Positions 1,340-63,269 of a DNA stretch of 64,000 nucleotides are shown piece after piece (within the stretch, counting starts at the first letter, position 1; each line of letters starts with the position of its first letter). The stretch is from Eledone cirrhosa (Eukaryota): the NCBI GenBank assembly GCA_964016885.1, contig OZ024741.1, forward strand, positions 240,064,001 through 240,128,000. The letters are read 5' to 3'. The notes under the pieces were generated by a model. That model searched no databases. It had not been told where the DNA came from and saw nothing but the letters and a program-made list of their open reading frames with translations. The position numbers and the translations under genes were made by a program.

Positions 1340-1505
1340 CTGATATTCCTGGTAATTCTTCATAATGTTTCATATCACCTTCATTCAATACACGTCTACT
1401 GCTTCTCTTAGATGACATTGTATCTGATGTATAGTTACAAACTATAGGAGGATTATCTTCCACAGCATCATCACTTGATGTCACCACAACAGGTTGACAA
1501 TATTT
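1340..1505 (-). CDS. Pcdh: Protocadherin U1, coding exon B (cytoplasmic, 166 nt, KYCQPVV...PGIS)
   Basis: Acceptor TGTCAACAG|AAA in phase 0 with the large exon; donor CAG|GTTAAT; conserved in all 8 units. Confidence 0.85.
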
Positions 1506-1688
1506 CTGTTGACAAATAAACCAAGAGAAATGTGAGGAGACATCAAACAATCCTAGTTACAATAAACATGTAGTTTACAATTAAATATTGGACTATATTA
1601 TTGAAGATAAAACATTGTTAAAATAATCTTATTGTTTATGTTTTACATATAGAATGAAGATAGAAAATATTTTAATCTTTTCACTTAC

Positions 1689-4061
1689 TGGGGTAGTTTT
1701 TGGTAAAGTTCTTGCCTGAACTGAAGCTTCATATTTATTCTGTAGCTGACCTTCTGAATAACATTCACTCTTTGATCTCTCAGAATATATATTTCTTTTT
1801 ATCATCTCTTCTGTATTCCTTGACATAGCAACAGGATTGTTAGACTGATACAACAATTGTTTCATCTCTGTTCTACCTTGGTATGCTGTAGTCTTTGTTG
1901 TAGTAGCTGTGTTATCTCTGTGTTTAATACATTTCATTATACACAGTGTTATAGAAACAACAATAGCCACTGATACTATTACTGCTGATGATACAATGAT
2001 AATAACCCATGTCATATGGACTCTACCTGAAGATTGTAAAGGTACAATTTTCAACATTGGTGATGTCTCATTACTAACAGCCAATACCAAAGTCACACTA
2101 GTTGTTGATGACTGAACTGGACTACCACTGTCTTTTACAACAAACTTTAGTTCATAACTTCCAGCATCATTTAGATAAACTTGTCTGGAGAATGATAAAG
2201 CACCACTGTGTGAGTTCATAGTAAACAACTGTTTATTATTTCCTTGTATGATTTCATATGTGAGGAAAGCATTGTTTCCACTGTCACCATCAGATGCTCT
2301 CAAAACTGTGATGTCACTCTTACTCTGGGGATGGTAGTGGACATTTAGGGTGTAAGGGTCAACACTAGGAAAGGTGAAATATGGAACATTGTCATTTTGA
2401 TCTAAAATCTCAACAACAACATTAGCTGTGTCATTCAGAGATGGACTTCCATTATCTTTGACAAAAACCTGAAATTTATACACATCTTGTTTCTCTCTGT
2501 CTAATGACATGGTGGCTGAAATAAAGCCATAACTGGTGATCAGAAATGGTAGATTTGATTTTTCTTTATGTAGCAGAGAATATGTGAGTTGTCCAGCAGA
2601 TCCAAGGTCAGGGTCAGTGGCATTGACAAAACCAATAGGGAAGTCTTTATCTTTGTTTTCATAGGTCATGAATTGGAATGTATCTTTGGTAAACTGTGGT
2701 TGTACATCATTGATATCAGTCACTTGGATAGAGAGAGTTTTAACACTTTTAAGAGGTGGTAATCCTTTATCTTGACATGAGACAGGAATGTTATAGTGTC
2801 CTTGTGTTTCTCTGTCTACTGGTTTGTTTAGAACTATTTTATATTCTTTAGATCCCATTGACTGTAGTTTGAATGTATCATGTTTGATATCACAGCTGAC
2901 CTCTCCATTTTGTCCAACATCATTGTCAGTGACCATCACATAAGCAATGAAACTACCAACTTTGATCTTCTCAGAAATGGTAGCTGTGTTGTCATTGATA
3001 GCAGAAACATAATCTATATCAATAGATGGAGGGTTGTTGTGTTGGTTGATAACATTTAGCAGAACTGTTGCTATGGAACTGAGTGGAGGGTTGCCTCCAT
3101 CTCTAGCTTCTATGAATAATTCAAAAGAGCTTTTTTCATTTAAGCTAGAAATTCTGGACAAAAATATTTTGCCATCTTTTCTATTTAATTCAAAATATTT
3201 CCTAGCTTGATCAGAAGTTTTGGGACTGAAATGGAAAGTAATTTTACTGTTGGGTCCTAAATCTTTATCTGTTACTGACAAATTAAGAATAGGTTTGGTT
3301 ATATCATGAGTGGTTCTAATGGAAATATTATAAAGTGGTTTTGAAAATACAGGTGGATTATCATTCGCATCTTCCACAACAATCAGAACATTTAACACAC
3401 ACTGTTTAGATGGGGAGCCTCCATCTTTAGCAATAACTTCTAAATTGTATTTCTCTTTTATCTCCCGGTCTAATTTATCCTTTAAAACGATCTTTAATGA
3501 GGAAATACCATCAGCTCTTTTAGAAACTGATAGAGAAAATAAATCATTAGATTTTTTAAGTTTATATTCAATAAAAGAATTTTGGTAACTAATATCTTTG
3601 TCTATGGCATTTGGAATTGACTTTGTCAGACCTCTTCCACCTATTTCCTCAAATTGTAGAATGATTTGTTTTTCTGGAAACTCTGGTTCATGGTCGTTAA
3701 TGTCTTCTATTACTATTTTAACTTTTATGATTTTTGTGAAAGTTTCCACTTTTTTAATTATAATTTTAACAGTTCTAGAACATTCTTTGTTGAATGTACA
3801 GAGTTTCTCTGCATCCAGTGTCTGAGCAGTGTACAGTTTACCTGTTTTGGTGATATTAAATAACTGTGCCACCTTTCGTTTAAATTGACTGAATGTTATC
3901 AATTGTTGGTCAGATGGTTTAACATTGTCTAAAAGTTTAGAATCAGCAGCAATGTCTGCTACATATGTTCCTGGACTTCTCTCTTCTTCCACATGGTAGG
4001 TAAGGTCTATGGTCAGAACACAGTGAACCATTGATAATACAATAGACAATGGTAGTAACAT
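1689..4061 (-). CDS. Pcdh: Protocadherin U1, large coding exon (signal peptide, EC1-EC6, TM, juxtamembrane)
   Basis: DxNDxxP, LDRE and A/VxDxD cadherin motifs in six repeats; C-x5-C in EC1; hydrophobic TM WVIIIVSSAVIVSVAIVVSITLC; donor CCA|GTAAGT at 1689/1688; acceptor TTTCAG|G at 4174/4173. Confidence 0.95.
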
Positions 4062-4672
4062 ATTGTTGTTGTATTGGTACTGATTAAAGATGTCCTGATG
4101 TGATGGTGTTGATTAAAGATGTTCCAATTTATTGGTAATATTTAACGATGTCCTGATATGTTGATGATTGAACCTGAAACTGGAATACATTTTTATCAAT
4201 TATTATTATGAGACATTGATCAAAGTTTTAAATACATTGATATTGTAAAATATTTACCACATCCCTCCATTATTTTTTTATCCTGCAATATAATTCAATT
4301 TTATAAATCCAAGATTGGTATGCCTGATATACCAGGATTACTAGATATATGAACAATGAAACAAACTGGGAAATTTGTACTTTGATAACTTCATGATATG
4401 CATAGTTTATGTGGATTACTGACATGTAGAGGGAACTAAAGATGAGAATGTTATTTTAATAATTTATTTACTGGGATATAATTACATAACATATATGTGC
4501 AAATGACATACAGGATTAAATGGATAAATAACTTTGGAGGAACAACTATTTACAGGAGCAAATGTTTGAAACTAGGGTTTTGTGTTTAGAAGTAAATTTC
4601 TTATTGTAGCAAAATGACTTAGGAAATGCATTGTGTTTATAATTGTGTGTATAAATTTCCAAGCGTTATCGG

Positions 4673-7257: not shown

Positions 7258-8613
7258 ATATTTCCTATTTCTCATCCTCCTGGCAAACTTCTTATACTCT
7301 GCTTTAGTCAAAGCAACATGTATTTTTTTTTAAGTTGAAAAGCATTATTCCTTACTATTCCATCTACTCTGATCAAACCTATTACTTATCTTTTATAGTT
7401 GCAGTAGCAACATTATTCAATCATATTGTCAAATTTTTAATTGAGTCTCTGAACCATCCTTAAAATTGGTCAGTGGTCTGCAGCCAGCTCTCAAGGGTAC
7501 ACCCAGTTCCCATCTATATACTACGAGTTATCTATTCATACATACATTTGTTAGTATTTTATGGCAGATAGCTCAGAGAGAAGCATACTTCAATTTACGG
7601 GCCCTTCCCCTTTCTTTCAACTATATTCCATCTCTCTACTTGCATTAAATTCACAGTGAAGTATCTAATCACTAAAATATGTTTGGGAACATTCAACATA
7701 GGGAAACTAAAGTTTTTAAGAATATGTCTGTATCTTTTAGTAAAGAAAAGAAAAAAAGAAAAAAGTATCCTAAATAAAATATATTTGGTTTTAAACATTT
7801 TCACTTCAAAATTTAGTTGTCAATATAATATAAATAAAAGGAAAAATGTCATAAACGAAAATATTAAGGAAAGCTGATCCAAAATTATGCTGAAAGATAT
7901 TACATAAAAAAGTTAGATCAAATGTGTAAAGAAATAAAAATACATTTCTATTTATAGCTTGATAATGATTAAAATGCAACAAAATAAAATTTTGAAATTA
8001 TATAAATATATTTTCAAAATTTTACTTCAATATTTTACTAGCAGTAAAAAATAAATATCTACATCAGATTAATGAAAGATTTTCTACAATATTCTGCCAA
8101 CTCCATTCACTTCCTGGCAGTATTAAACCTTTGTCTGTCAGCCATTATCCATTACACACAATTACCTCATCACTGCTAACAAACAACACACTATGACCAC
8201 ATCTAAACACACTGTAAACTATTTCTTTACACCTTTTCTAACATTTTAACATATCTTTCATAACCCATCAACATGTTTAGACACAACATTAAATCTTTCT
8301 TACAAAACACACACACTATAGCAAAATATTATATAGCTTGTTCTTTACTGTTACGTCTCACTATATATATAACAAATATAATATAGACATCAATAATACT
8401 GTTTATATGGAATAAAGTCTAAATATTAAACATTTTAATCATCATCTAATCAGTGATATAAAACAATATGGATAACATTACTGAAAAAAGAGTGAATTAT
8501 TGTTCAATCTCTTTGTTCTCAAGTTAATATTAAATATGTTAAAACTATATCTTATAGATTTACTGAGATTTAGTATATAAAATGAGATTATAAAAGATTA
8601 AATAGAAACTTAC

Positions 8614-9050
8614 CTCTTTAATAATTATATCATTGGTTATCCAGTGAGAATAGAGAGATGTATTATTGTCAAAAGCTCCATTGTAAGTGCTGCTGTAATG
8701 GTGTGTGACAATGGCTGTATGTTGATGGAGTAGTGTAGCACGTCAGGCAGATAGTCTGCTGCTAGGATAGGGTTGTGTGTTATTGAAGTTCTATGTTTGT
8801 GGCAGTACATCCCTCTATTAATATTGTGTATGTATTTATCCTTAAATATGATGTTTGTTTACTGTTACCAAAAACTATGTACATATATAGATATATATAT
8901 TTAAATAGCTACAATATTCTCTAGTTAAACATAACATGTTTGGTTTAATAACATCAGTAATGTGAATGCTTCACTTTGTTAGTGATTTCTGTCTATGTTT
9001 TAGTGAGAATCTGATTGGTTGAATAACCTAAACAGAAGACCAATGGCATT
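8614..9050 (-). promoter_or_regulatory. U1 promoter and non-coding exon 1 block
   Basis: About 430-bp block repeated upstream of 7 units; two opposed CCAAT boxes, TGACGTGC, near-invariant core, donor GAG|GTAAGT at 8614/8613. Confidence 0.75.
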
Positions 9051-9086
9051 GTTTTCTTTAATATTGATTTCTATTGGCAAAGCACG

Positions 9087-9516: not shown

Positions 9517-9593
9517 TTATACATGTTTTATTGGTGTTTCTTCACTGGAATCTTTTGATGTACATGTATCATTGTTTTTGTATATATTTTGAT
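9517..9593 (-). CDS. Pcdh: Protocadherin U2, terminal coding exon C (DQNIYKNNDTCTSKDSSEETPIKHV*)
   Basis: Acceptor TTTCAG|AT completes the phase-1 codon; 77-nt conserved island in divergent DNA; mostly synonymous differences among paralogues. Confidence 0.85.
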
Positions 9594-9834
9594 CTGAAAT
9601 ATTGGAACAGAATATAGTTTAACAAAATTATCAAAATGATAATTTAGATACAAAATGTAAATTTACAAAATTATGAAAAACACCATTATGTTATTTAATA
9701 AGACAAGAAAATAATGCAACAGAAAAAATAGCTGAAATACACATTTAAAAAAAATATTTCTTAAAAGCAGCTGTAAATATATATATCTCTCTGAAAGCTA
9801 CCAACATAACATAATATTGTCTGTAGTTATTAAC

Positions 9835-10000
9835 CTGATATTCCTGGTAATTCTTCATAATGTTTCATATCACCTTCATTCAATACACGTCTACTACTTC
9901 TCTTAGATGACATTGTATCTGATGTATAGTTACAAACCATAGGAGGATTATCTTCCACAGCATCATCACTTGATGTCACCACAACAGGTTGACAGTATTT
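9835..10000 (-). CDS. Pcdh: Protocadherin U2, coding exon B
   Basis: Same splice sites and frame as U1. Confidence 0.85.
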
Positions 10001-10183
10001 CTGTTGACAAACAAACCAAAAGAAATGTGAGGAGACATCAAACAATCCTTGTTACAATAAAAATGTAGTTTACAATTTAATATTGGACTATATTATTGAA
10101 GATAAAACATTGTTAAAATAATCGTATTGTTTATCTTTTACATATAGAGTGAAGATAGAAAATATTTTAATCTTTTCACTTAC

Positions 10184-12559
10184 TGGGGTAGGTTTTGGTA
10201 AAGTTCTTGACTGAACTGAAGAATCATATTTATTCTGTAGCTGACCTTCTGAATAACATTCACTCTTTGATCTCTCAGAATATATATTTCTTTTTATCAT
10301 CTCTTCTGTATTCCTTGACATAGCAACAGGATTGTTAGACTGATACAACAATTGTTTCATCTCTGTTCTACCTTGGTATGCTGTAGTCTTTGTTGTAGTA
10401 GCTGTGTTATCTCTGTGTTTAATACATTTCATTATACACAGTGTTATAGAAACAACAATAGCCACTGATACTATTACTGCTGATGATACAATGATAATAA
10501 CCCATGTCATATGGACTCTACCTGAAGATTGTAAAGGTACACTTTTCAACATTGGTGATGTCTCATTACTAACAGCCAATACCAAAGTCACACTAGTTGT
10601 TGATGACTGAACTGGACTACCACTGTCTTTTACAACAAACTTTAGTTCATAACTTCCAGCATCATTTAGATAAACTTGTCTAGAGAATGATAAAGCACCA
10701 CTGTGTGAGTTCATAGTAAACAACTGTTTATTATTTCCTTGTATGATTTCATATGTGAGGAAAGCATTGTTTCCACTGTCACCATCAGATGCTCTCAAAA
10801 CTGTGATGTCACTTTTACTCTGGGGATGGTAGTGAACATTTAGGGTGTAAGGGTTAACACTAGGAAAGGTGAAATATGGAACATTGTCATTTTGATCTAA
10901 AATCTCAACAACAACATTAGCTGTGTCATTCAGAGATGGACTTCCATTATCTTTGACAAAAACCTCAAATTTATACACATCTTGTTTCTCTCTGTCTAAT
11001 GACATGGTGGCTGAAATAAAGCCATAACTGGTGATCAGAAATGGTAGATTTGATTTTTCTTTATGTCGCAGAGAATATGTGAGTTGTCCAGCAGATCCAA
11101 GGTCAGGGTCAGTGGCATTGACAAAACCAATAGGGAAGTCTTTATCTTTGTTTTCATAGGTCAGGAATTGGAATGTATCTTTGGTAAACTGTGGTTGTAC
11201 ATCATTGATATCAGTCACTTGGATAGAGAGAGTTTTAACACTTTTAAGAGGAGGTAATCCTTTATCTTGACATGAGACAGGAATGTTATAGTGTCCTTGT
11301 GTTTCTCTGTCTACTGGTTTGTTTAGAACTATTTTATATTCTTTAGATCCCATTGATTGTAGTTTGAATGTATCATGTTTGATATCACAGCTGATCTCTC
11401 CATTTTGTCCAACATCATTGTCAGTGACCATCACATAAGCAATGAAACTACCAACTTTGATATCTTCAGAAATGGTAGCTGTGTGGTCATTGATAGCAGA
11501 AACATAATCTATATCAATAGATGGAGGGTTGTTGTGTTGGTTGATAATATTTACCAGAACTGTTGCTATGGAACTGTGAGGAGGGCTACCTCCATCTCTA
11601 GCCTCAATAAACAGCTCATATGTTTTCTTTTTTCCCAAACTTGAATATTTATTTAAGAAAATGTTTCCACTGGTTTCATTTAATTGGAAATAACTTTTTG
11701 CTAGATCTGATGTCTTTGGACTGAAATGGAAAGTAATTTTGCCATTTTCTCCAGAATCAGAATCTGTTACAGATAAAACAATGATAGGTTTAGATTTGTG
11801 ATGTGTACTTTGTATGGATATATTATATAGAGGTTTAGAAAATACTGGTGGGTTGTCATTTAAATCTGTTATAGAGATATTTATATTTAAAATACCTTGT
11901 TTTGATGGTGAACCTCCATCTTTAGCTATGACCTGTAATAAATATGTATCTTTGATTTCTCTGTCTAATGATTCTTTCAATACTATTTTAAGAGAAGAAA
12001 TACCATCTGCTCTTTTAGCGACCGACAAAGTGAACGGTTCTCCATTCTTAGATTTCAATTTATATTGTATTAATGAGTTTTGAAAACCCACATCTTTATC
12101 CATGGCATTTGGTATTGATCTGTCCGAACCTTTGCGATCATGTTCACCAAACACAATATTCACTGCTTTTATAGGAAACTCAGGTTGATGATCATTGATA
12201 TCTTCAATTACAATTTTGATTTTTAATATTTTAGTCACACTTCTTCCTTTGTTTACAACAACCTTCATAGTTCTAGAACATTCTTTGTTGAATGTACAGA
12301 GTTTCTCTGCATCCAGTGTCTGAGCAGTGTGTAGTTTACCTGTTTTAGTGATATTAAATAACTGTGCCACCTTTCGTTTAAATTGACTGAATGTTATCAA
12401 TTGTTGGTCAGATGGTTTAACATTGTCTAAAAGTTTAGAATCAGCAGCAATGTCTGCTACATATGTTCCTGGACTTCTCTCTTCTTCCACATGGTAGGTA
12501 AGGTCTATGGTCAGAACACAGTGGACCATTGATAATACAATAGACAATGACAGTAACAT
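10184..12559 (-). CDS. Pcdh: Protocadherin U2, large coding exon
   Basis: Six EC repeats and TM; donor CCA|GTAAGT; acceptor TTTTAG|G at 12624/12623. Confidence 0.95.
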
Positions 12560-13164
12560 TGTTGTTGTAGTAGTTGTTGTGTTGGTACTGGTTAAAGATG
12601 TTCAGATATGTTGAGGATTAAACCTAAAAGAGAAATACATCTTGAACAATTATCAAAAATGAATTACAATTATCTGTGAAACAATTGAATTATAGGAATC
12701 TATTACTGTACACAGAACATGTTTTAATTGTGGTTAATCAAACTGGTATTATATAGCTTTATTGAACAAATAACTAGATCCGAGTTTACCTTGAGAGAGT
12801 GGATTCAAACCCCAAGTTAGTCTATCTTCAGCTATACATATACACCGTGTAACAAAAAATTTTTTTTCTCTGTTCCTGGCTTGTAATCATTTTTTTTTGT
12901 GTTGCTTAGGTCCCAAATAAATAAAAAAAAGTGCTATTAAACAGTTAAAAGTTTGGGTTTGTAAAAATTCTAAGCTATTCACTAGAATTATTTGTATGCT
13001 GGATTTTATGTTGTATGTAAGTTTAATTTGCTTATGTTAAATGATTTTTTTTTATATATGTTTCAGTTAAATTAAAATTATAAAATAAAGAGTAATACCT
13101 AAAGAAAATTATAAAAGTGCAATAAAGTATCAAATTGTTAAAAAGTGGATTAAAGAGATTTATT

Positions 13165-14340
13165 GATACTGGGGTACCAGAAAAAGTTCCTCACTTCCCA
13201 AACCAAAAAGAAGTCAATGACTTGGTCAGGGATATGGGTCTGACCAAGTCTAATGCAGAGCTATTCGTCTCCAGGATGAAGCAATGGAACTTGGTCAAGG
13301 AGGAAGTGCAGGTGACAAGTCAGAGAAGTCAACACAAATCTTTCTCAGGCTTTTACACTCTTAGGGATGGCCTCTGCTATGACGTCCCTGGACTGTTTGA
13401 CGTTATTGGGGTGCCGTTTATGCCCAAGGAGTGGTGGCTATTTATAGACAGCTCCACCACAAGTTTGAAGGCTGTCCTCCTCCACAATGGAAACAAGTTC
13501 CTGACACTGCCCCTAGCTCATTCAGTCTGGCTGAAGGAAGATAACTACAGTGTGAAAGTCCTCTTGGAAGCTCTGCAATACAACCAGTACAATTGGGAAA
13601 TCATTGGAGACTTCAAGATGGTGGCTTTCCTGCTTGGACTCCAAGGAGGCTTTATCAAATTCCAATGCTTCCTCTGCCTTTGGGACAGCAGAGCCACCTC
13701 TGACCACTACAAAATAAAGAACTGGGAGCAGCGAACAGAATTTGTAGTTGGGATCCGGAACGTCATGTGGGAGCCACTGATTGATCCCAGGATTGTGCTC
13801 ATGCCGCCACTGCACATTAAGTTGGGCTTGATGAAGCAGTTTGTGAAGGCTCTCAACCAAGAATCAGCCGCTTTTAAGTACCTTCTTGAGTTCTTCCCCA
13901 AGTTATCTGAGGCCAAAATCAAAGGTGGAATTTTTGTTGGACCTCAGAAAAAGAAGGCCTTTGAGTCTACCGAGTTCTCCAATAAGCTCAATAGGATTGA
14001 GAGAACAGCATGGAACTGTTTCAAGGCAGTTGTTAAGGGCTTCCAGAGCTGAAAACTATCAGCAACTGGTGCAGGATCTGATAAAGGCTTTTGGCGCCAT
14101 GGGATGCAGGATGTCGCTTAAACTCCATATGCTGGATGCTCACCTGGAAAAATTCAAGGACAATATGGGCGCCTACTCAGAAGAACAAGGCGAATGATTC
14201 CACTAAGATGTGAAAGAGATAGAGCGGAGGTACCAGGGCCACTACAATGAAAAAATGATGGGGGACTATATCTGGGGGCTAGTGCGGGAATGTGACCTGG
14301 ACTACAACTGCAAATCCAGGAAATCCAGTCATTTCTGACG
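13165..14340 (+). pseudogene. Transposase pseudogene (Chapaev3-like)
   Basis: Motifs LFIDSS..SLKAVLLHNGN, CFLCLWDSRA, PPLHIKLGLMKQFVKAL, MSLKLHMLDAH, SEEQGE*FH*D; frameshift near 14045, in-frame stops, N-terminus apparently missing. Confidence 0.75.
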
Positions 14341-14440
14341 TGTATAAGTTGCTTTATAATGTTATTTGTTTTTACTTGTTTGCTTTTGATAAGCTTGTGT
14401 AATAAAATAAATATATACTCTGTTGATTTAATTATATGAA

Positions 14441-15753
14441 TCAATGGCCGAGCTAGAGAAGAAATTCCAAACATGGAAGCACGGCCTAGAATCAAAAGGC
14501 CTTAAAATTAACATGGATAAGACTAAAGTTCTAGTTTGTAGGAAAGAAAATAAGGCGCCGGTCCCTTCCGGGAAATGGCCATGCTCAGTGTGTAGGAAAG
14601 GCGTAGGTAGAAACTCCATTTTATGTCCCAAATGCAAAGTATGGGTGCATAAAAGATGTAGTGGGATCACAGGTAAGCTAACTAAGAACACAGATTTTAC
14701 ATGTGGCCGGTGCTCTGGTGCAATAAGTAGCAGCAAGTGCCCACAAAATACTAGCTCTTTCAACTGCGCAGAGGGTTCTATAGAAATAGTGGACAGCTTC
14801 CGTTACCTGGGTGACAAAATCAGCAGTGGGGGAGGGTGCTCCGAAAGTACAGTAGCTAAAGTCAGAACTGGATGGAAAAAGTTCAGAGAGCTTATACCAC
14901 TATTAGCCGCTAAAGGGTTCTCCCTAAAAGTGAAAGGCAGGTTGTACGATGCCTGCATACGAACAGCAATGTTGCATGGCAGTGAGACCTGGGCATTGTG
15001 TGCAGAGGATATACGCAGACTAGAGAGGAACGAAGCTTGCATGCTCCGCTGGATGTGTAATAGTAATATACGCGAACGGCAAAGTATAAACGAACTAAGG
15101 AAAAAATTAGAAATAAGAGGGATCAGATGTTGTTTACTCGAGAGAAGGCTACGTTGGTATGGTCACGTGATGCGCATGAAAGACGACAGCTGTATAACAA
15201 AGTGCAGGGCAATAAAGATAGATGGTAGCCACGGAGTAGGCAGACCCAGAAAAACCTGGGACGAGCTGATAAATTCCGACCTCACACACTTACACCTCTC
15301 CAAGACAATGTTACTGGACCGAGATCTTTGGCGGTACTCAGTAATAGAGAAGACCCGCGTTACCTAAATACAAAGTAAAACCTACTACAGTCAGTAGGCA
15401 TCTCTAACAAAATACACCCCCGTCCCACCACCCCCACCCCATCCACACCGCCCCTTTCAATGTAAAGTTATGTTGGTGCCACAAAATCCAGGCCGAAACA
15501 AATGAGATCGTGTAGGTGTCACGACAAAAAAACACACAGTCCACGCTGTAATGTGACCGTGTAGGCAACACGGTAAAAACCTCCCAGCCCCACCCTGAAA
15601 ATGTGGTTGGTGTTAGGAAGGGCATCCAGCTGTAGAAAACCCGCCAGACAGTCCTATGCGAGCAAGACAACCACTCTTGCCTACAGTGGGAAAACTCCCA
15701 TCCAAACCCATGCAAGCATGGAACACGGACGCTAAACCTTGATGATGATGATG
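14441..15753 (+). mobile_element. 5'-truncated, relatively young RTE/RTEX-like LINE nested in the DNA transposon
   Basis: Uninterrupted 307-aa ORF (end of RT, PHD-like Cys/His finger, FRYLG, LHGSETW, RLRWYGHV, GRPRKTW); (GAT)n tail; ATATGAA TSD at 14434-14440 and 15754-15760. Confidence 0.9.
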
Positions 15754-20366: not shown

Positions 20367-20443
20367 TTAAACATGTTTCACTGGTGTTTCTTCACTGGAA
20401 TCTTTTGATGTAGATGTATCGTTGTTTTTATATATATTTTGAT
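20367..20443 (-). CDS. Pcdh: Protocadherin U3, terminal exon C (DQNIYKNNDTSTSKDSSEETPVKHV*)
   Basis: Acceptor TTCCAG|AT; conserved frame and stop. Confidence 0.85.
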
Positions 20444-44304: not shown

Positions 44305-44480
44305 CTGTTGACAAACAAACCAAGAAAAATGTGAGGAGACATCAAACAATGCTAGTTACAATAAACATGTAGTTTACAATTTAATATTGGACTATATTAT
44401 TGAAGATAAAGCATTGTTAAAATAATGTTATTGTTTATCTTTACAAAGTAAAGAGAAAATATTTTAATCTTTTCACTTAC

Positions 44481-49580: not shown

Positions 49581-50008
49581 CACTTTAATAATTATATCCT
49601 TGGTTATTCAGTGAGAATAGAAAGATGTATTGTTGTAGAAAGCTCCATTGTAAGTGCTGCTGTCATGGTGTGTGACAATGGCTGTATGTTGATGGAGTAG
49701 TGTAGCACGTCAGGCAGATAGTCTGCTGCTAGGATAAGGTTGTGTGTGTTATTGAAGTTGTATGCTTGTGGCAGTACATCTTTCTAATAATATTGTGTAT
49801 GTGTTTATCCTTAATTATGATGTTTGTTTACTGTTATCAATAACTATTTACATATATTTAAATAGCTACAATATTCTATAGTTAAACATAACATAAATGT
49901 TTGGTTAAATAACATCAGTAATGTGAATGTTTCTCTTTGTTAGTGATTTCTGTCTATGTTTTAGTGAGAATCTGATTGGTTGAATGACCGAAACAGAAGA
50001 CCAATGAC
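49581..50008 (-). promoter_or_regulatory. U6 promoter and non-coding exon 1 block
   Basis: Copy of the conserved block. Confidence 0.75.
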
Positions 50009-50573
50009 AATTTTCTCTTTAATATTGATTTCTAAAGGTGATACAGATGTTTCATATTTACAGGAAAAGGTAAAGAGATGCAATGACCATGATGCATTTC
50101 CCAAAACTATTAACATCATTACTTATTTCTTTTTAATATTATTATTACTTCTATAATGTATGGAATTGTTTACTCATTAACAAAAAATCTGTTGGGATTT
50201 TTACCCCCACCTTAAGTAGAATTACATAAATCCTTTAAAGAACATGGTAAACTATATAGAAAGTCCGAAAATAATACACCAAAGTATATGTTATAAGGAT
50301 TTATAATTCATTTATTTTAAAATATATTGTAATATTTTCTAACCAACGGAAACTGAACTAATTAGACCAAATAGATCTGTGGTTCCTTATCGGAAGCACT
50401 GCTTGTATATATTTCTGATAATGTATGTTAATACCTACACTTATTTTTTAATTAGAGTACAGTTAATAAAGAATGTGTATGTCGATATATATGTGTTCAT
50501 GTGTGTATTGCACAGTCTATCTATATTTCATATTTACATAGAGGAAGATAGTTATGTCACTTTACTAATATCA

Positions 50574-50650
50574 TTATACATGTTTCACTGGTGTTTCTTC
50601 ACTGGAATCTTTCGATGTAGATGTATCATTGTTTTTATATATATTTTGAT
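50574..50650 (-). CDS. Pcdh: Protocadherin U7, terminal exon C
   Basis: Same as U6 exon C. Confidence 0.85.
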
Positions 50651-51099
50651 CTGTAATTTAGATACAAAATACACTTTATATGGAGGGGATAAATCTGCTA
50701 TTAAATAGGGCAATGAAATGATACAATGTTCTAAAGATTACTAGCACAACAGATTCTTCAAAACCTCACTGGGCAAATTAGAAAGTTAATTCTTATTGAA
50801 TGACAAAATCATCAAAAACAGTTCTTAATAGATAATATGATGTGATATAAAGATCATATATTGCTAATGTAGTTTGTAAACTTTTGATGTAGCTGTAATG
50901 ACATTTTAGAAAATTAGAGACGGGACCATTTCATTATTTAATAAGTCATATTGAAAGACAGGCAATGGTGTAACAGTCAGATTCTCTAAGAATTGAATGA
51001 GCAAATAAATAAATTTATTGTTTTAGACTGGCAGTGTTTTATATTGTTAAATATAGTTTGTAATGAATATCTACTTGAGATGATAAAACAAAATATAAT

Positions 51100-51281
51100 T
51101 GTTTCTACTTTTGGAACAAGGCCAGCAAACACCCAGTGCATTACTGGTACTTTATTTTATAGACCCCGTAAGGATGAAAAGGAAAGTTAACCTCAGCGGG
51201 ATTTGAACTAAGAATGGCAAGGGACGTAACTCTATGCGTCAAAGCATGGTGTCCGACCCCCTACCGATACTGCCAATCCAC
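51100..51281 (-). mobile_element. SINE (family A) in U7 intron 3
   Basis: Duplicate of 43926-44106. Confidence 0.88.
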
Positions 51282-51312
51282 AAAATATAATAAAGCCAAA
51301 GTAGTTATTAAC

Positions 51313-51478
51313 CTGATATTCCTGGTAATTCTTCATAATGTTTCATATCACCTTCATTCAATACACGTCTACTACTTCTCTTAGATGACATTGTATCTGA
51401 TGTATAGTTACAAACTATAGGAGGATTATCTTCCACAGCATCATCACTTGATGTCACCACAACAGGTTGACAATACTT
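51313..51478 (-). CDS. Pcdh: Protocadherin U7, coding exon B
   Basis: Same splice sites and frame as U1. Confidence 0.85.
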
Positions 51479-51654
51479 CTGTTGACAAACAAACCAAGAA
51501 AAATGTGAGGAGACATCAAACAATGCTAGTTACAATAAACATGTAGTTTACAATTTAATATTGGACTATATTATTGAAGATAAAGCATTGTTAAAATAAT
51601 GTTATTGTTTATCTTTACAAAGTAAAGAGAAAATATTTTAATCTTTTCACTTAC

Positions 51655-54030
51655 TGGGGTAGGTTTTGGTAAAGTTCTTGACTGAACTGAAGCTTCATAT
51701 TTATTCTGTAGCTGACCTTCTGAATAACATTCACTCTTTGATCTCTCAGAATATATATTTCTTTTTATCATCTCTTCTGTATTCCTTGACATAGCAACAG
51801 GATTGTTAGACTGATACAACAATTGTTTCATCTCTGTTCTACCTTGGTATGCTGTAGTCTTTGTTGTAGTAGCTGTGTTATCTCTGTGTTTAATACATTT
51901 CATTATACACAGTGTTATAGAAACAACAATAGCCACTGATACTATTACTGCTGATGATACAATGATAATAACCCATGTCATATGGACTCTACCTGAAGAT
52001 TGTATAGGTACACTTTTCAACATTGGTGATGTCTCATTACTAACAGCCAATACCAAAGTCACACTAGTTGTTGATGACTGAACTGGACTACCACTGTCTT
52101 TTACAACAAACTTTAGTTCATAACTTCCAGCATCATTTAGATAAACTTGTCTGGAGAATGATAAAGCACCACTGTGTGAGTTCATAGTAAACAACTGTTT
52201 ATTATTTCCTTGTATGATTCCATATGTGAGGAAAGCATTGTTTCCACTGTCACCATCAGATGCTCTCAAAACTGTGATGTCACTCTTACTCTGGGGATGG
52301 TAGTGGACATTTAGGGTGTAACGGTTAACACTAGGAAAGGTGAAATATGGAACATTGTCATTTTGATCTAAAATCTCAACAACAACATTAGCTGTGTCAT
52401 TCAGAGATGGACTTCCATTATCTTTGACAAAAACCTCAAATTTATACACATCTTGTTTCTCTCTGTCTAATGACATGGTGGCTGAAATAAAGCCATAACT
52501 GGTGATCAGAAATGGTAGATTTGATTTTTCTTTATGTATCAGAGAATATGTGAGTTGTCCAGCAGATCCAAGGTCAGGGTCAGTGGCATTGACAAAACCA
52601 ATAGGGAAGTCTTTATCTTTGTTTTCATAGGTCAGGAATTGGAATGTATCTTTGGTAAACTGTGGTTGTACATCATTGATATCAGTCACTTGGATAGAGA
52701 GAGTTTTAACACTTTTAAGAGGAGGTAATCCTTTATCTTGACATGAGACAGGAATGTTATAGTGTCCTTGTGTTTCTCTGTCTACTGGTTTGTTTAGAAC
52801 TATTTTATATTCTTTAGATCCCATTGACTGTAGTTTGAATGTATCATGTTTGATATCACAGCTGATCTCTCCATTTTGTCCAACATCATTGTCAGTGACC
52901 ATCACATAAGCAATGAAACTACCAACTTTGATCTTCTCAGAAATGGTAGCTGTGTGGTCATTGATAGCAGAAACATAATCTATATCAATAGATGGAGGGT
53001 TGTTGTGTTGGTTGATAACATTTACCAGAACTGTTGCTATGGAACTGAGAGGAGGGCTGCCTCCATCTCTAGCCTCAATAAACAGCTCATAGGTTTTCTT
53101 TTTTCCCAAACTTGAATATTTATTTAAGAAAATGTTTCCACTCGTTTCATTTAATTGAAAATAACTTTTTGCTAGATCTGATGTCTTTGGACTGAAATGG
53201 AAAGTAATTTTACCATTTTCACCAAAATCAGAATCTGTTACAGATAAAATAATGATAGGTTTAGATTTGTGATGTGTACTTTGTATGGATATATTGTATA
53301 GAGGTTTAGAAAACACTGGTTGGTTGTCATTCACATCTATTATAGAAATATTTATATTTAAAATACCTTCTTTTGATGGTGAACCTCCATCTTTAGCTAT
53401 GACCTGTAGTAAATATGTATCTTTGATTTCTCTATCTAATGATTCTTTTAAAACTATTTTAAGTGAAGAAATACCATCTGCTCTTTTAGCAACTGACAGA
53501 GAGAATGGTTCTCCATTCTTCGATTTCAATTGATATTGTATTAATGAGTTTTGAAAGCCTACATCCTTGTCTATGGCATTTGGTATTGACATCTTAGAAT
53601 CTTTGCGATCATTTTCGCTAAACTGTATATTGACACTATACATGGGAAAGACTGGTTGATGATCATTGATGTCTTCTATTACTATTTTGACTTTTATGAT
53701 TTTAGTGAAAGTTTCCACTTTTGTGATTATAATTTTAATAGTTCTAGAACACTCTTTGTTGAATGTACAGAGCTTCTCTGCATCCAGTGTCTGAGCAGTG
53801 TACAGTTTACCTGTTTTGGTGATATTAAATACATGTGCCACCTTTCGTTTGAATTGACTGAATGTTATCAATTGTTGGTCAGATGGTTTAACATTGTCTA
53901 AAAGTTTAGAATCAGCAGCAATGTCTGCTACATATGTTCCTGGACTTCTCTCTTCTTCCACATGGTAGGTAAGGTCTATGGTCAGAACACAGTGGACCAT
54001 TGATAATACAATAGACAATGACAGTAACAT
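51655..54030 (-). CDS. Pcdh: Protocadherin U7, large coding exon
   Basis: Six EC repeats and TM; acceptor at 54088/54087. Confidence 0.95.
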
Positions 54031-54359
54031 ATTGTTGTTGAAGTGTTGATACTGGTTAAAGTTGTTCTGATATTTTGAGGACTGAACCTAAAAGAGAAAT
54101 ACATTTCATCAATTATGTTGCTTTGACTGATAATTTCTGTAATATGCAATTAATTTTAGATGAAAATGTCAGTAAACAATTATCATGAAAGAAAATGTAG
54201 AGTTGAACTATTGCTTCTTTCTAGAATGTTCTAGATGTACAAAAGACAAAGAGGGAGAGTTATTGCATATGATGTATAAACTGAGTTCAAATCTGAGGTA
54301 TCAAATGATTTCGCAAGAAGTACACCATAACCATTATCGCAGCACAACATATCCAATTC

Positions 54360-56580: not shown

Positions 56581-58817
56581 TTGACATTAATTCTGGTTTC
56601 TGTAGTGTCAAGTGGATGAAAGACTCATCTCCTTCTATATTACAGAGTGATCTGATGTAGGTAATTTTCCCCGTAGGAAGAATTGAACGTAGCTCTGTTA
56701 GCCAACCAATATTTCACCTCTTTGATATTATTGTAGTGAGTTAGACCAGTTAAATCTAGGCAGGAGAGGGGGTATACAACATGTTTCTTAATTAACAATT
56801 CATTGCTTCTAAAAGTTCTTTAAACTAACATTTTTACTCTCAATTCAATCTTTAAAATAAGAAATAAAACTTTCACAATATATATTTGATAATTTCCTCA
56901 TCCTCATCACAGCACTTTGTCGTTAATATGTAAATTCCTTCTTCCTAAGAACTACACTGCTCTAGAAATTACTCACTAGCTACGCCTGTTAGTATTTAAC
57001 AAAGTTATAATTCTTCAAAGATAATATCAACTACATCAGATTCATAGAAATTCTCATTTATGAAAATCAATAAACATAATTTCTGAGATGTTTTTTAACA
57101 CATAAAACTGATTTATTTCATGTCTTCAATTAATCTCTCATTCCTTGTTAATTTCCTCATGCCATAGATGTTTAACCTTCATCTCACATAAGTATCTCAT
57201 ATAATATCGAATCTACAAGATTCTGATATTATTTATTTTGAGAACAATACCTTAACATAAATATGAGCAGCTGGTTGCAGCCGGTTTGAACAGAAAGAGG
57301 TGAGAGAATTGTGACTGGACACGGCTGATTTAAATCCTACAGGGTTAAATTCCTCAAGTTTCAAAAATATTTTAAGGAATATTCACCAAAGGAGTTACTT
57401 AAAAGAAAGTTTTATGTAAAAGGTAAACTTGTAAACACTTCTAGAAAGTTCTATCCAGAGGTAGACTTTATCAATCATTAGTTCAATAATGCCAAATACC
57501 TTTGTAGCTCTATTTAAGTTTATTTTACTATCTAAACTTATAATTCTGAGATTTAGACATATCTATATGATATTCCACTGGTTGAACTAAACAATGCCAG
57601 TGACATTTGTTATAAGCAGTAAACTGTTTAAAGAAGCAAAAGGGAAAAAAATAACCTCTGTACAGAAACTAAGGACCCATATTATAGAGCATGAGGAAAC
57701 TTCATATATTTATAAACTGTTATCAAGTCTATCTTTATGAACACTTATAACATCAGTGTTATTTACTAGGAGTATAATGTATATAGGAACTCCTCAAATT
57801 ATAAACCAAGGAAGGAACAAGTGAAAAGTGAATGTTTCAAAATATTATAAAGAAACAGAGACATATGTAATATTTAGCTTAAAGTGGTGGTTCAGAGAGG
57901 CCAGGATGTTTTGAAGAACAGAGATCATTAATAGCAGTTAGTATAAATTTATCAAAAACATACATAGAGAATATATAAAAAAAGAGTTAAAGAAATAGAT
58001 TTCTAGTTCTTAATTTAACTTTCGTATACATTTAAAACTAATTTAATCATTCAGATAAAAAATAATAGAAGGTTGTAAATAAAAAACTATTGATTAATAT
58101 AGTTTTAAATATGGCAAAATTAAATTAAAGAAATAAAGTAGAAAGTTGTTGAAAAAAATTATATTTTACTACTACAAAGAAACGTTAGAAACAAATACAC
58201 AGAATTTAAAATGTTTATAATTTAACATGAAATAGGGCTAGTCTTTATTTTAAGGTCTTCTATAACGTACCACCATGTTTCTATTCACTTACTGACAGCT
58301 GTAAATTGTAATATGTCCGCCATTATCCCTAACCAAAATCTATAACACACCACTATCTCATTGTACATGTTATAATCACAATGTACATGCTATAATCACA
58401 TTAAAGCACATTGTAAAATATGTATATCTATTTTATACCAAACATTTTAACATATGCTTTATATCTTTTCTTTATACACACACATCATTATATCTTACAA
58501 CAAAAAGAAACACACACTACAACACTATACTATATAGACTGTCCTCTATTGTTACTGTTCAGTATACGTAACAAATATTATAGACACACAGATAATATTC
58601 TTTCTATGAAATAAAACCTAAATATAAAGCATTTTCACCTACATCATCCAATTGTGATATCAAACAATATGGACAATATTAATGAAATATATATGAATTA
58701 TTGTTCAAACTCTTTGTTCTCATGTTGATATTAAATATGTTAGAAAAATATCTTACATATTTACTGAGATTTAGTATATAAGATGATATTAAAAAATGAG
58801 ATTAAATAGAAACTTAC

Positions 58818-59256
58818 CTCTTTAATAATTATATCATTGGTTATTCAGTGAGAAGAGAAAGATGTATTGTTGTAGAAAGCTCCATTGTAAGTGCTACTGT
58901 AATGGTGTGTGACAATGGCTGTATGTTGATGGAGTAGTGTAGCACGTCAGGCAGATAGTCTGCTGCTAGGATAGGGTTGTGTGTGTTATTGAAGTTCTAT
59001 GTTTGTAGCAGTACATCTCTGTAATAATATTGTGTATGTATTTATCCTTAAAGATGATGTTTGTTTACTGTTATCATTAACTATTTACATATTTATCTAG
59101 ATATATATTTAAATAGCTACAATATTGTATATAACATGACATGAATGTATAGTTTAATAACATCAGTAATGTGTATATTTCTCTTTGTTAGTGATTTCTG
59201 TCTATGTTTTAGTGAGAATCTGATTGGTCAAATGACCTAATCCGAAGACCAATGAC
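58818..59256 (-). promoter_or_regulatory. U7 promoter and non-coding exon 1 block
   Basis: Copy of the conserved block. Confidence 0.75.
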
Positions 59257-59691
59257 AGATATTCTCATTAATATTGATTAATGTTAGTGAAGCAGACATC
59301 TCATATTTATAGGAAAAGAGATGCTGCGATGATCATGCCTTTCTCATATCAATATATATACTATTAAGAAACAATCAAAATTTATTTATATTAATCCTAA
59401 AATATAAAAGAAATCTTACAACCTTTAAAGAACATGGAAAATTATATAAAGTATCAAATATTATGCTACATAATAGAGAGTTATAATTTATTTACTGTAA
59501 CATATTTAAAACTATTTTTCAATTAAAGGAAACTTACCTAAATTTAAATATATCAATGATTCACTTTTTCAGATGGACTATAGTTAAAAACGAATGTGTA
59601 TATTAGTATGTGTGTTTGATTTATGAGTACAGTACAGTCGATATTATATATTCATATAGAAAAATTGAGCTATGCCACATCAATAAGATAA

Positions 59692-59768
59692 TTACACATG
59701 TTTCACTGGTGTTTCTTCACTGGAATCCTTTGATGTAGACGTATCATTGTTTTTGTATATATTTTGAT
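59692..59768 (-). CDS. Pcdh: Protocadherin U8, terminal exon C
   Basis: Acceptor TTCCAG|AT; only synonymous differences from U3. Confidence 0.85.
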
Positions 59769-59963
59769 CTGGAATTTAAACATGAAACACATTTTACATC
59801 ATAATAGACCATTCTGTTATTTAGTAAACAATATGAAAAGAAATAAAAAAGATATAATTCTGAGTTTGTTATCAGACAGAAGAGAAAATTGCTATTGAAT
59901 GGTTAATAAATATCTATAAACAGTTGTTAACTGAATAAATGTGAGATGATATCAAAATATAAT

Positions 59964-60149
59964 TGTTTCTACGTTAGGCACAAGGCCAGCAATTACCCAG
60001 TGCATTACTGGTACTTTATTTTATCGACCCCGTAAGGATGAAAGGCAAAGTTAACCTCAGCGGGATTTAAAGTCAGAATAGCAAGGGCCGTAACTCTATA
60101 CGTCAAAGCATGGCGTCTGACCCTCTACCAATACTACCAATCCACCGCC
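59964..60149 (-). mobile_element. Full-length SINE (family A) in U8 intron 3
   Basis: TSD GATGATATCAAAATATAAT. Confidence 0.9.
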
Positions 60150-60192
60150 CTTGATGATATCAAAATATAATATAAGCAAAGTAGATATTGAC

Positions 60193-60358
60193 CTGATATT
60201 CCTGGTATTTCTTCATAATGTTTCATATCACCTTCATTCAATACACGTCTACTACTTCTCTTAGATGACATTGTATCTGATGTATAGTTACAAACTATAG
60301 GAGGATTATCTTCCACAGCATCATCAGTTGATGTCACCACAACAGGTTGACAGTATTT
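60193..60358 (-). CDS. Pcdh: Protocadherin U8, coding exon B
   Basis: Donor CAG|GTCAAT (GT kept, read-through stop lost). Confidence 0.85.
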
Positions 60359-60541
60359 CTGTTGACAAATAAACCAAGAGAAATGTGAGGAGACATCAAA
60401 CAATCCTAGTTACAATAAACATCAAGTTTACAATTTAATAATGGACTATATTATTGAAGATAAAACATTGTTAAAATAATCTTATTGTTTATCTTTTACA
60501 TATAAAGTAAAGATAGAAAATATTTTAATCTTTTCACTTAC

Positions 60542-62917
60542 TGGGGTAGGTTTTGGTAAAGTTCTTGACTGAACTGAAGCTTCATATTTATTCTGTAGCT
60601 GACCTTCTGAATAACATTCACTCTTTGATCTCTCAGAATATATATTTCTTTTTATCATCTCTTCTGTATTCCTTGACATAGCAACAGGATTGTTAGACTG
60701 ATACAACAATTGTTTCATCTCTGTTCTACCTTGGTATGCTGTAGTGTTTGTTGTAGTAGCTGTGTTATCTCTGTGTTTAATACATTTCATTATACACAGT
60801 GTTATAGAAACAACAATAGCCACTGATACTATTACTGCTGATGATACAATGATAATAACCCATGTCATATGGACTCTACCTGAAGATTGTAAAGGTACAC
60901 TTTTCAACATTGGTGATGTCTCATTACTAACAGCCAATACCAAAGTCACACTAGTTGTTGATGACTGAACTGGACTACCACTGTCTTTTACAACAAACTT
61001 TAGTTCATAACTTCCAGCATCATTTAGATAAACTTGTCTGGAGAATGATAAAGCACCACTGTGTGAGTTCATAGTAAACAACTGTTTATTATTTCCTTGT
61101 ATGATTTCATATGTGAGGAAAGCATTGTTTCCACTGTCACCATCAGATGCTCTGAAAACTGTGATGTCACTTTTACTCTGGGGATGGTAGTGGACATTTA
61201 GGGTGTAAGGGTCAACACTAGGAAAGGTGAAATATGGAACATTGTCATTTTGATCTAAAATCTCAACAACAACATTGGCTGTGTCATTTAGAGATGGACT
61301 TCCATTATCTTTGACAAAAACTTCAAATTTATACACATCTTGTTTCTCTCTGTCTAATGACATGGTGGCTGAAATAAAGCCATAACTGGTGATCAGAAAT
61401 GGTAGATTTGATTTTTCTTTATGTATCAGAGAATATGTGAGTTGTCCAGCAGATCCAAGGTCAGGGTCAGTGGCATTGACAAAACCAATAGGGAAGTCTT
61501 TATCTTTGTTTTCATAGGTTAGGAATTGGAATGTATCTTTGGTAAACTGTGGTTGTACATCATTGATATCAGTCACTTGGATAGAGAGAGTTTTAACACT
61601 TTTAAGAGGTGGTAATCCTTTATCTTGACATGAGACAGGAATGTTATAGTGTCCTTGTGTTTCTCTGTCTACTGGTTTGTTTAGAACTATTTTATATTCT
61701 TTAGATCCCATTGACTGTAGTTTGAATGTATCATGTTTGATATCACAGCTGACCTCTCCATTTTGTCCAACATCATTGTCAGTGACCATCACATAAGCAA
61801 TGAAACTGCCAACTTTGATCTTCTCAGAAATGGTTCCTGAGTTATAATTGGTTGCAGAAACATAATCTATATCAATAGATGGAGGGTTGTTGTGTTGGTT
61901 GATAACATTTACCAGAACTGTTGCTATGGAACTGAAGGGAGGGTTACCCCCATCTCTGGCCTCGATAAACAGTTCATAGGTTTTCTTTTTTCCCAAACTT
62001 GAATATTTACTTAAGAAAATGTTTCCACTGGTTTCATTTAACTGAAAATAACTTTTTGTTAGATCTGATGTTTTGGGGCTAAAATGGAAAGTAATTTTAC
62101 CATTTTCACCAGAATCAGAATCTGTTACAGATAAAACAATGATAGGTTTAGATTTGTGATGTGTACTTTGTATGGATATATTATATAGAGGTTTAGAAAA
62201 TACTGGTGGGTTGTCATTCACATCTATTATAGAGATATTTATATTTAAAATACCTTGTTTAGATGGTGAACCTCCATCTTTAGCTATGACTTGTAGTAAA
62301 TATGTATCTTTGATTTCTCTATCTAATGATTCTTTTAAAACTATTTTAAGTGAAGAAATACCATCTGCTCTTTTAGAGACAGACAGAGAGAATGGTTCTC
62401 CATTCTTGGATTTTAATTTATATTGTATTAATGAGTTCTGAAAACCTACATCTTTGTCTATGGCATTTGGTAGCGATCTCTTTGAACCTTTGCGATCATC
62501 TTCACCAAATTGTATGTTGACATTCTTTATAGGAAACTCTGGTTGATGGTCATTGATGTCTTCTATTACTATTTTGACTTTTAATATTTTTGTAAAAGTT
62601 TCCACTTTCTTTATAATAATTTTCACAGTTCTAGAACATTCTTTGTTGAAAGAACAAAGTTTCTCTGCATCCAGTGTCTGAGCAGTGTACAGTTTACCTG
62701 TTTTCGTGATATTAAATAACTGTGCCACCTTTCGTTTAAATTGACTGAATGTTATCAATTGTTGGTCAGATGGTTTAACATTGTCTAAAAGTTTAGAATC
62801 AGCAGCAATGTCTGCTACATATGTTCCTGGACTTCTTTCTTCTTCCACATGGTAGGTAAGGTCTATGGTCAGAACACAGTGTACCATTGATAATACAATA
62901 GACAATGACAGTAACAT
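60542..62917 (-). CDS. Pcdh: Protocadherin U8, large coding exon
   Basis: Six EC repeats and TM; acceptor TTTCAG|A at 62981/62980. Confidence 0.95.
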
Positions 62918-63269
62918 ATTGTTGTAGTTGTTGTTGTGTTGGTACTGGTTAAAGATGTCCAGATATGCTGAGGATTGAATCTGAAACAGATATACATTTC
63001 ATCAATTATCATATTTTGACAGATTATAAGCAATCTATAGCATAAGAGATTTAACTTCAATACAGCAATCTCACAAAACTTTCATCCTGTTATGTCTATA
63101 TAATTTTGAAGGCTTCATTAACTATTTTATTCACTATATTTCAATGTGTTTCATAAGTGAAAAAAAATGAATTAATACATTTAGACCCCAAACATGAATG
63201 ATGTTATTTGTGGTGGAGTCAACAGTTGATATGAGAGAAAATAGCCAATTTTCTGAGTTACAAGAATTA

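Follow-up and report, generated by a model that had tools for sequence, protein, structure and literature searches.

Probable regional gene conversion in a complete-gene protocadherin sub-array of the octopod Eledone cirrhosa

The protocadherin units and their transcripts

The stretch analysed here (64,000 nucleotides of Eledone cirrhosa assembly GCA_964016885.1, contig OZ024741.1, positions 240,064,001 to 240,128,000; hereafter the window) is AT-rich animal DNA (GC 32%). It carries on the minus strand eight uninterrupted open reading frames (ORFs) of 810-834 aa, which encode cadherins with six extracellular repeats (EC1 to EC6) and a transmembrane (TM) helix. All have the same orientation and their start codons lie 6,948-10,885 bp apart (Table 1), which bears out the description, in an earlier note made from these letters alone, of eight intact head-to-tail genes 7-11 kb apart. 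Taken as a whole, the locus is probably best explained as an octopod sub-array of complete genes subject to regional gene conversion, in which EC1-4 would have a role in recognition.

The predicted products comprise a signal peptide, six repeats (Pfam Cadherin_2 and Cadherin matches) joined by five linkers, one TM helix and a cytoplasmic tail; the AlphaFold2 (AF2) model shows strands for all six repeats and a TM helix at residues 684-713. EC1 lacks a Trp at its start and carries a C88/C94 pair in the E-F loop that is invariant in 83 aligned sequences. The best PDB/Foldseek matches (6vg1, 6vg4, 6e6b) are vertebrate protocadherin ectodomains with ~30% identity, while the best 120 of 1,104 protein matches are all Octopus or Argonauta protocadherins, the closest among these 120 being from O. 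vulgaris (91%), with ten A. hians proteins at 80-87%. Five of the eight published octopus-specific motifs match in 7-8 of the 8 units, two EC6 motifs have no match, and the PP1 pattern has matches in the ectodomain only. O. vulgaris, O. sinensis and Argonauta hians each have an annotated orthologous sub-array, the closest matches reaching 83-91%; the units of the window form part of such a sub-array of octopod clustered protocadherins, which are a known family.

In every unit exon A (2,373-2,376 coding nt) is followed by a GTAAGT donor and an intron of 176-183 bp, lengthened to 382 bp in unit 4 by a ~200-bp insertion with target-site duplication that resembles a short interspersed element (SINE). 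The earlier note had credited each unit with private, near-identical copies of two further exons. This holds throughout for exon B (166 nt, 8 of 8 units, median pairwise identity 98%) and in units 2-8 for exon C (77 nt, ending TAA, median identity 93.5%), which starts 241-662 bp past exon B and completes proteins of 871-872 residues; both identities are far beyond chance, since the same method gives 52% for unrelated AT-rich 150-mers. A blastn-short search, which found seven copies overall, detected no exon C for unit 1 in the 1,339 bp left up to the window edge. The segment 1-1339 is also without 3' untranslated region (UTR) or promoter homology to the other units, and exon C is likewise missing from two O. 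vulgaris models and one Argonauta model.

Unit 5 and its upstream block were compared with contigs from four public runs (X24, X1, X4 and X21); X24, which is not recorded as RNA, was taken as such from the splicing of its contigs, those of X21 being unspliced. The joint between exons A and B (183 nt skipped, GT..AG, minus strand) occurs in one contig each of X24, X1 and X4 and is absent from X21, which covers all 30 bins and is DNA-like. A 506-nt X24 contig joins 42391-42622 to 39697-39913, and the conserved block upstream of the gene therefore includes a non-coding leader exon, at least 232 nt long, that is spliced; as the 57 letters between these segments disagree with unit 5, the contig derives from a paralogue, and it is no proof of which leader pairs with which unit. 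Another X24 contig equals the end of exon C and the private 3' UTR of unit 5 (218 nt, 0 differences). As for the B-C joint, which is not among the 15 of 165 joints listed, its basis is provided by contigs that end exactly at both edges of exon B and by annotated orthologues that run continuously through the same exons B and C. The four-exon structure suggested previously (here a leader, the large exon A, and exons B and C) is thus backed by spliced contigs at its first two joints and indirectly at the third, and the units are likely to be self-contained.

The conserved inter-unit block (~0.9-1.3 kb, 7 in the window) lies 2.5-6.9 kb upstream of the ATG, ends its leader exon with a GGTAAG donor and contains an ATTGG/CCAAT pair ~400-435 bp above that donor. 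Across units, the leader exon is 94-95% identical and the 220 bp above it 88%, in comparison with 53-68% for the distal introns, and the promoter-like block constitutes a second near-identical island of the array. The notion of one promoter per unit accordingly found a candidate for seven units of eight, the leader and promoter of unit 8 being located beyond the window edge. From a stop codon to the next leader donor there are 874-1,011 bp, and poly(A) hexamers are present in 7 of 7 inter-unit spacers. The most conserved ~70 bp of the block (42477-42547 and six equivalents) sits within the transcribed leader exon and includes, 131-132 bp above the donor, a TGACGT word, which we take to be CRE-like; two or three upstream ATGs occur within the last 232 nt of the leader. 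No Rfam family was found in the window, and a structured RNA in the leader exon was rejected, as this exon folds no better than shuffled sequences (z -0.99).

Table 1. Positions, within the 64-kb window, of the units, the conserved inter-unit blocks and other features
Feature	Position	Strand	Details
Unit 1, exon A	1689..4173	-	ATG 4061; signal peptide, EC1-6, TM, proximal tail; EC2-3 type A; acceptor from alignment
Unit 1, exon B	1340..1505	-	no exon C in 1-1339
Unit 2	9517..12623	-	A 12623-10184, ATG 12559; B 10000-9835; C 9593-9517; type B
Unit 3	20367..23520	-	A ~23520-21069, ATG 23444; B 20886-20721; C 20443-20367; type B
Unit 4	28636..32237	-	A 32237-29805, ATG 32177; B 29422-29257; C 28712-28636; type A
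Unit 5	36765..39962	-	A 39962-37533, ATG 39908; B 37349-37184; C 36841-36765; type B
Unit 6	43400..46913	-	A 46913-44481, ATG 46856; B 44304-44139; C 43476-43400; type B; apparent chimera
Unit 7	50574..54087	-	A 54087-51655, ATG 54030; B 51478-51313; C 50650-50574; EC1 F-G module I, type B EC2-3
Unit 8	59692..62980	-	A 62980-60542, ATG 62917; B 60358-60193; C 59768-59692; module I, type B
Block of unit 1 (assigned)	8154..9073	-	donor 8614
Block of unit 2	18730..19969	-	donor 19439
Block of unit 3	27145..28421	-	donor 27726
Block of unit 4	35178..36311	-	donor 35776
Block of unit 5	41841..43060	-	donor 42389
Block of unit 6	49033..50251	-	donor 49581
Block of unit 7	58259..59337	-	donor 58818
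EC3-EC4 linker, unit 8	61880-61900		NQHNN for DxNDN; equivalents in other units
Two transposon-like ORFs	13234..15367	+	272 and 307 aa; inside leader intron of unit 2, not part of the gene

A few irregularities accompany the units. In unit 3 (23520-23530) the homologous acceptor AG reads AT, which gives rise to an upstream in-frame ATG in the ORF list, the next AG being 6 nt downstream; in intron B-C of unit 4 the end of exon B is partly duplicated together with its donor (28893-28988). Transposon-like ORFs and fragments resembling SINEs or long interspersed elements (LINEs) fill the leader introns (13234-15367, 6267-6626, 25056-25621 and 33212-34240); the second ORF within 13234-15367 encodes a PHD finger and is presumably a LINE fragment. 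A SINE-like repeat of ~190 bp has copies in the B-C introns of units 5-8, in unit 4 (intron A-B) and at 139-319.

Regional homogenisation in the window and its comparison across species

Silent (dS) and replacement (dN) divergence were calculated over the 28 unit pairs by codon region. dS is 0.08 in EC1 codons 18-97, 0.83 in codons 98-126, 0.98 in 127-160, 0.54 in 161-238 and 0.48 in EC3, and then 0.04 in codons 367-456, 0.04 in EC5, 0.02 in EC6, 0.000 in TM and tail, and 0.05 in exon B; intron A-B is 95.6% identical, and identity drops to 65% within 60 bp past exon B. The homogenised region, as delimited from these values, comprises EC1 to codon ~97 and EC4 through intron A-B to the end of exon B, and codons ~98-346 (the F-G strands of EC1, EC2 and EC3) largely escape it. 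The invariant part is therefore not confined to the tail, as had been supposed: the tail is indeed homogenised through exon B, but so are EC1 to codon ~97, EC4-EC6 and TM. In codons 673-792 of all units (e.g. 60542-60901) nine codons vary, all by replacement and none synonymously, which is compatible with chance.

The comparison across species is based on 10 O. vulgaris, 9 O. sinensis and 21 Argonauta proteins taken as orthologous rows from cluster look-ups (15 of 24 members listed for the main O. vulgaris/sinensis cluster; fused P0143, P0150 and P0156, partial P0095 and P0146, and isoforms P0151 and P0153 left out; outgroups P0154 and P0155 dropped from the trees). Argonautidae and Octopodidae are separate families. 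Median identity within species versus between lineages is 97-99% versus 86-90% for EC6, and 97.5-100% versus 84-88% for TM and tail, whereas in EC2 two units of the window are only 61% alike and a window unit reaches 95.5% identity with an O. vulgaris protein. Of the 446 columns in residues 347-792, 41 are diagnostic of lineage, and of the 249 in residues 98-346 none is; all 11 columns that separate the two EC2-3 types (type A: units 1 and 4; type B: the remaining six units), between which dS reaches 1.4, fall within 101-314. Both types, named from the alignment before any tree was built, are present in the four species sampled. The EC2-3 tree joins 14 type-A proteins of all four species (support 99/97), whereas the constant-region tree (a quick rather than a careful one) splits Argonauta from Octopus (support 99 each); approximately unbiased (AU) tests on 22 rows rejected monophyly of the window units in EC2-3 (p 3.5e-6) and of type A in EC5-tail (p 1e-55). 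The EC2-3 variants predate the split of Argonautidae and Octopodidae. Since silent sites and the short intron are homogenised, the constant part is lineage-specific and the EC2-3 types cross families, we consider it very probable that the pattern of the array is that of regional gene conversion, as in fugu protocadherins, extended here into the tail. On the same grounds the proposal that a variable ectodomain and an invariant remainder arise here by homogenisation and not by splicing was borne out.

Recombination is seen directly, in that incompatibility among nearby informative sites (192) is below all 2,000 permutations and unit 6 is mosaic: it resembles unit 5 over codons ~93-149 and in the upstream intron, whereas its likeness to unit 7 begins at exon B and extends across the next promoter, so that a recent unequal crossover between units 5 and 7 seems to have produced it (41017-54098). 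Units 6 and 7 share ~99% identical non-coding DNA, yet differ by 8-18% over EC1-EC3. The EC1 F-G module (I or II) assorts independently of the EC2-3 type, with I+A, II+B (e.g. units 2 and 5) and I+B (units 7 and 8) in the window; the combination I+B also occurs in Octopus, but none of the 21 Argonauta rows has it.

EC5-6 identity in 68 Argonauta proteins has a bimodal distribution, the gap falling at 80-85%, and for 55 of the 68 the nearest neighbour in EC2-3 shares at least 90% of EC5-6. One Argonauta group of 23 is 56-83% identical in EC1-3 and 97-100% identical from EC4 to exon B, a contrast that is partly due to construction, as the groups consist of 90%-cluster representatives linked by EC5-6. 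In P0005, P0010, P0012 and P0144 (O. vulgaris and Argonauta) a homogenised end of exon A is followed by a divergent exon B, which indicates that a conversion tract can stop at intron A-B.

A possible recognition role and its alternatives

Vertebrate protocadherins form antiparallel homophilic dimers through EC1-4, with specificity mostly in EC2-3, and promiscuous cis dimers through EC5-6 (PMC5001838, PMC5115871, PMC8901172). Sequence comparison indicates that in the octopod array repeated gene conversion and unequal crossing-over hold EC1 (codons ~18-97) and EC4 to exon B near-identical within a species, while codons ~98-346 largely escape, retain old variants and are reshuffled by recombination as modules. 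If the vertebrate structures are a guide, trans binding may proceed via an antiparallel EC1-4 interface with specificity in the unconverted patches, and the units would share interchangeable EC5-6 cis surfaces (97-98% identity among units) and one signalling tail. Variability among the six type-B units peaks at EC1 F-G, EC2 A-B, the EC3 F-G loop and the EC4 A-strand loop, all four of which are among the interface elements listed in PMC5115871 for vertebrate protocadherins. Within the projected interface the type-B units show a 2.4-fold enrichment of replacement differences, a value reached by 13 of 265 circular shifts, against 1.3-fold for silent differences (reached by 59 of 265), and the AF2 strands agree with the interface boundaries used. 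A homodimer complex prediction for EC1-4, run without alignment, scored 0.01 and counts neither way.

On balance we lean towards isoform-preferring homophilic adhesion by the array proteins, and we infer, as did the earlier note, that the array may have an identity-code function; stochastic barcoding of single neurons by it seems rather doubtful. Near-identical promoters would imply a common regulatory input, so that differences between cells would have to come from promoter competition or chromatin and not from unit-specific factors. We can only speculate, and regard it as unlikely, that octopods have independently evolved the full vertebrate-type barcode logic without constant exons or CTCF-based promoter choice. 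In such a system conversion would make cis surfaces, tails and promoters interchangeable, selection would guard the EC1 F-G, EC2 A-B, EC3 F-G and EC4 A-loop patches as they recombine into new specificities, and identical promoters located just behind the 3' end of the upstream gene would compete, possibly by transcriptional interference, to yield a stochastic self-avoidance set.

Several observations weigh against these proposals. The interface enrichment is borderline, with boundaries set after the alignment had been inspected, and three of the listed interface elements (EC2 D-E, EC4 B and EC4 D-E) are nearly invariant. dN/dS nowhere exceeds 1, lying at 0.17-0.26 in the variable zone and reaching 0.55 where EC4 begins, so that positive selection for specificity is unsupported and the variable zone may have escaped conversion passively; with 87-93% identity over EC2-3, the six type-B units may cross-react. 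Crude scans of the seven promoter blocks (600 bp each) detected no CGCT box, no match to a CTCF-like pattern and no CpG island. O. vulgaris cells express on average 19 protocadherins, some ubiquitous and some enriched in cell types (PMC9712504), and a single-cell atlas of Euprymna berryi gives a similar picture (PMC12240821). Exon C, which had been thought part of the homogenised tail, has dS 0.29 and dN/dS 0.08 between flanks of 61-65% identity and is therefore kept mainly by purifying selection. An Argonauta group of 22 shares EC5-6 (97-98%) but carries at least two tail types, and the most general constant module is accordingly EC5-TM rather than the tail. The GC content at third codon positions (GC3) is 0.278 in the first part of EC1 and EC4-6 against 0.225 in the variable zone, but is not raised in TM-tail (0.225) or exon B (0.16), so that the rise is inconsistent, unlike that of converted fugu regions.

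The EC3-4 linker weighs on the same side: it is NQHNN-like instead of DxND[NH] (0 of 117 ungapped octopod rows have the canonical motif), the xE/LDRE motifs are missing from EC3, and the other four linkers are canonical. Vertebrate Pcdh19 has canonical calcium sites at this linker, and the octopod dimer may therefore differ. The non-canonical linker is a lineage trait that is compatible with protocadherin membership, and a literature search revealed no report of it. The AF2 model (pTM 0.46) fits EC3-6 crystal structures at 4.6-6.3 Å and EC1-4 structures only at ~50 Å; given this poor superposition the angles between its domains were disregarded, and it lends no support to a bent EC3-4 linker.

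Among the alternatives, passive concerted evolution without any barcode role is a serious contender, although we place it short of an even chance. Here conversion would be a by-product of tandem arrangement, diverged EC2-3 sequences would have ceased to be a substrate, transposon insertions would set the other tract ends, and the array would provide dosage or a coarse cell-type adhesion code with few binding classes. The low dN/dS, the likeness of the type-B units in EC2-3, the ubiquitous or cell-type-enriched expression in the O. vulgaris and E. berryi atlases and promoters 88-95% identical in which the crude scan found no vertebrate choice elements all agree with it, as does the coincidence of tract ends with repeat-rich introns. 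It accounts less well for an unconverted zone that coincides with EC2-3 both in three octopod lineages and in two other sub-arrays of Argonauta, and that was spared independently in vertebrates according to the accounts discussed below; nor does it readily explain a small variable patch that persists within converted sequence at the EC4 A-strand loop (pN 0.13), or the retention of types A and B in all four species sampled.

We consider it improbable, if less so than the two explanations that follow, that the units are not strictly self-contained and that read-through or cross-unit splicing to a neighbour's identical downstream exons makes the array partly one of variable and shared constant exons. 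The short distance from stop codon to next leader donor, unit 1 with its exon C absent from the window, and the leader-exon A contig, which comes from a paralogue and is compatible with more than one pairing of leader and unit, would fit such splicing, and read-through fusions were met in protocadherin curation (PMC9712504). Moreover, the O. sinensis RefSeq X1/X2 models P0132/P0134, with consecutive accessions, differ only in residues 2-304, and the pair P0125/P0128 only in exon C; however, such pairs may reflect short-read mis-mapping among near-identical exons. Every unit also has its own exon B with GT/AG borders and seven of eight their own exon C under purifying selection, a contig identical to the private end of unit 5 exists, poly(A) hexamers occur in all spacers, and such splicing is denied for coleoid protocadherins in PMC9068888.

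Recent tandem duplication without conversion, in which the tail would be under strong purifying selection and EC2-3 would change fast and adaptively, is very hard to sustain: a burst at 8-14 Ma has been dated for one octopod protocadherin group (PMC9795677) and ~5.9 kb of units 6 and 7 are 96% identical, but silent sites and the intron are homogenised while EC2-3 dS is as high as noted between types, the EC2-3 types are common to different families, flanking introns are only 53-68% alike, and the opposite tree topologies of EC2-3 and the constant region refute it. An assembly artefact, i.e. collapsed or falsely duplicated haplotypes, might be suspected from the several kb of near-identical non-coding DNA in units 6 and 7 (~99%) but is almost certainly not the cause, as every unit carries substitutions of its own, including in the constant regions (3-14 nt per 480, 5-10 per 696), as well as private introns and 3' UTRs, and the same pattern recurs in the annotations of three other species.

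Relation to known protocadherin clusters

In coleoids, protocadherin diversity has been attributed to full-gene duplication instead of splicing to shared final exons, with homogenisation by gene conversion suggested (PMC9068888), and head-to-tail clustering with possible conversion was likewise described (PMC6339937). This prior publication tells against the novelty of both features, and the window shares with the sub-arrays in these reports and in PMC9795677 the tandem arrangement of multi-exon genes of one direction, arisen by full-gene duplication. Where these accounts, in the parts that bear on the question, invoke conversion of whole genes only, we find a domain-restricted pattern, trans-family EC2-3 types, a leader/promoter island, module shuffling and an odd EC3-4 linker. 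Our literature searches found no cephalopod report of domain-restricted homogenisation or promoter choice, although supplements may already describe the pattern; provisionally, what is new here is the shape of the homogenisation, with EC2-3 spared and EC4 to exon B converted.

The closest parallel is provided by the clustered protocadherins of fugu, in which paralogues of a subcluster are >97-99% identical in the 3' part, EC2-3 is spared, synonymous sites are homogenised and the converted regions vary among subclusters (PMC1852091); EC2-3-sparing conversion is also summarised for mouse, zebrafish and Xenopus (PMC4978886). The octopod lineage and its expansion are independent of the teleost ones. 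In fish, as these sources describe them, the tail comes from shared constant exons and conversion ends at the variable exon, whereas in the octopod array it runs through the intron and exon B into a private tail; the constant part (EC4-EC6, TM and tail) nevertheless resembles fugu regional conversion more than it does constant exons. With vertebrate Pcdh-alpha/gamma, described as non-orthologous to octopod clustered protocadherins, the units have in common one large exon for signal peptide, EC1-6, TM and proximal tail, a promoter or promoter-like block per isoform, an effectively common distal tail and variability on EC2-3. They differ in the absence of shared constant exons, in an extra non-coding leader exon kilobases upstream, in the non-canonical EC3-4 linker and in that the crude scan detected no conserved sequence element (CSE/CGCT) or CpG island. 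Self-containment is not unique to octopus, because Pcdh-beta genes are already self-contained tandem genes with their own promoters and no shared constant exons (PMC7811963); those are single-exon genes, whereas the octopod units have four exons and a 163-residue tail.

Conversion implies that whole-gene distances understate the age of the array, and recent-burst dates (8-14 Ma, PMC9795677) may partly reflect it, if the present sub-array belongs to the group dated there. Short reads from the constant region, where unique 31-mers make up 3-21%, are not assignable to paralogues, but codons 98-160 (76-100%) and the private 3' UTRs (100% in five of seven) are distinguishable, and paralogue-resolved single-cell analysis should therefore be feasible with 3'-end data.

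On whether cephalopod protocadherins act like vertebrate ones, PMC9068888 makes no functional claim. The pattern described here names residues and isoform pairs (type A versus type B, module I versus module II) that would be relevant to binding. That the same domains, EC2-3, are spared in an independent expansion provides indirect evidence that they may carry isoform identity in octopus too.

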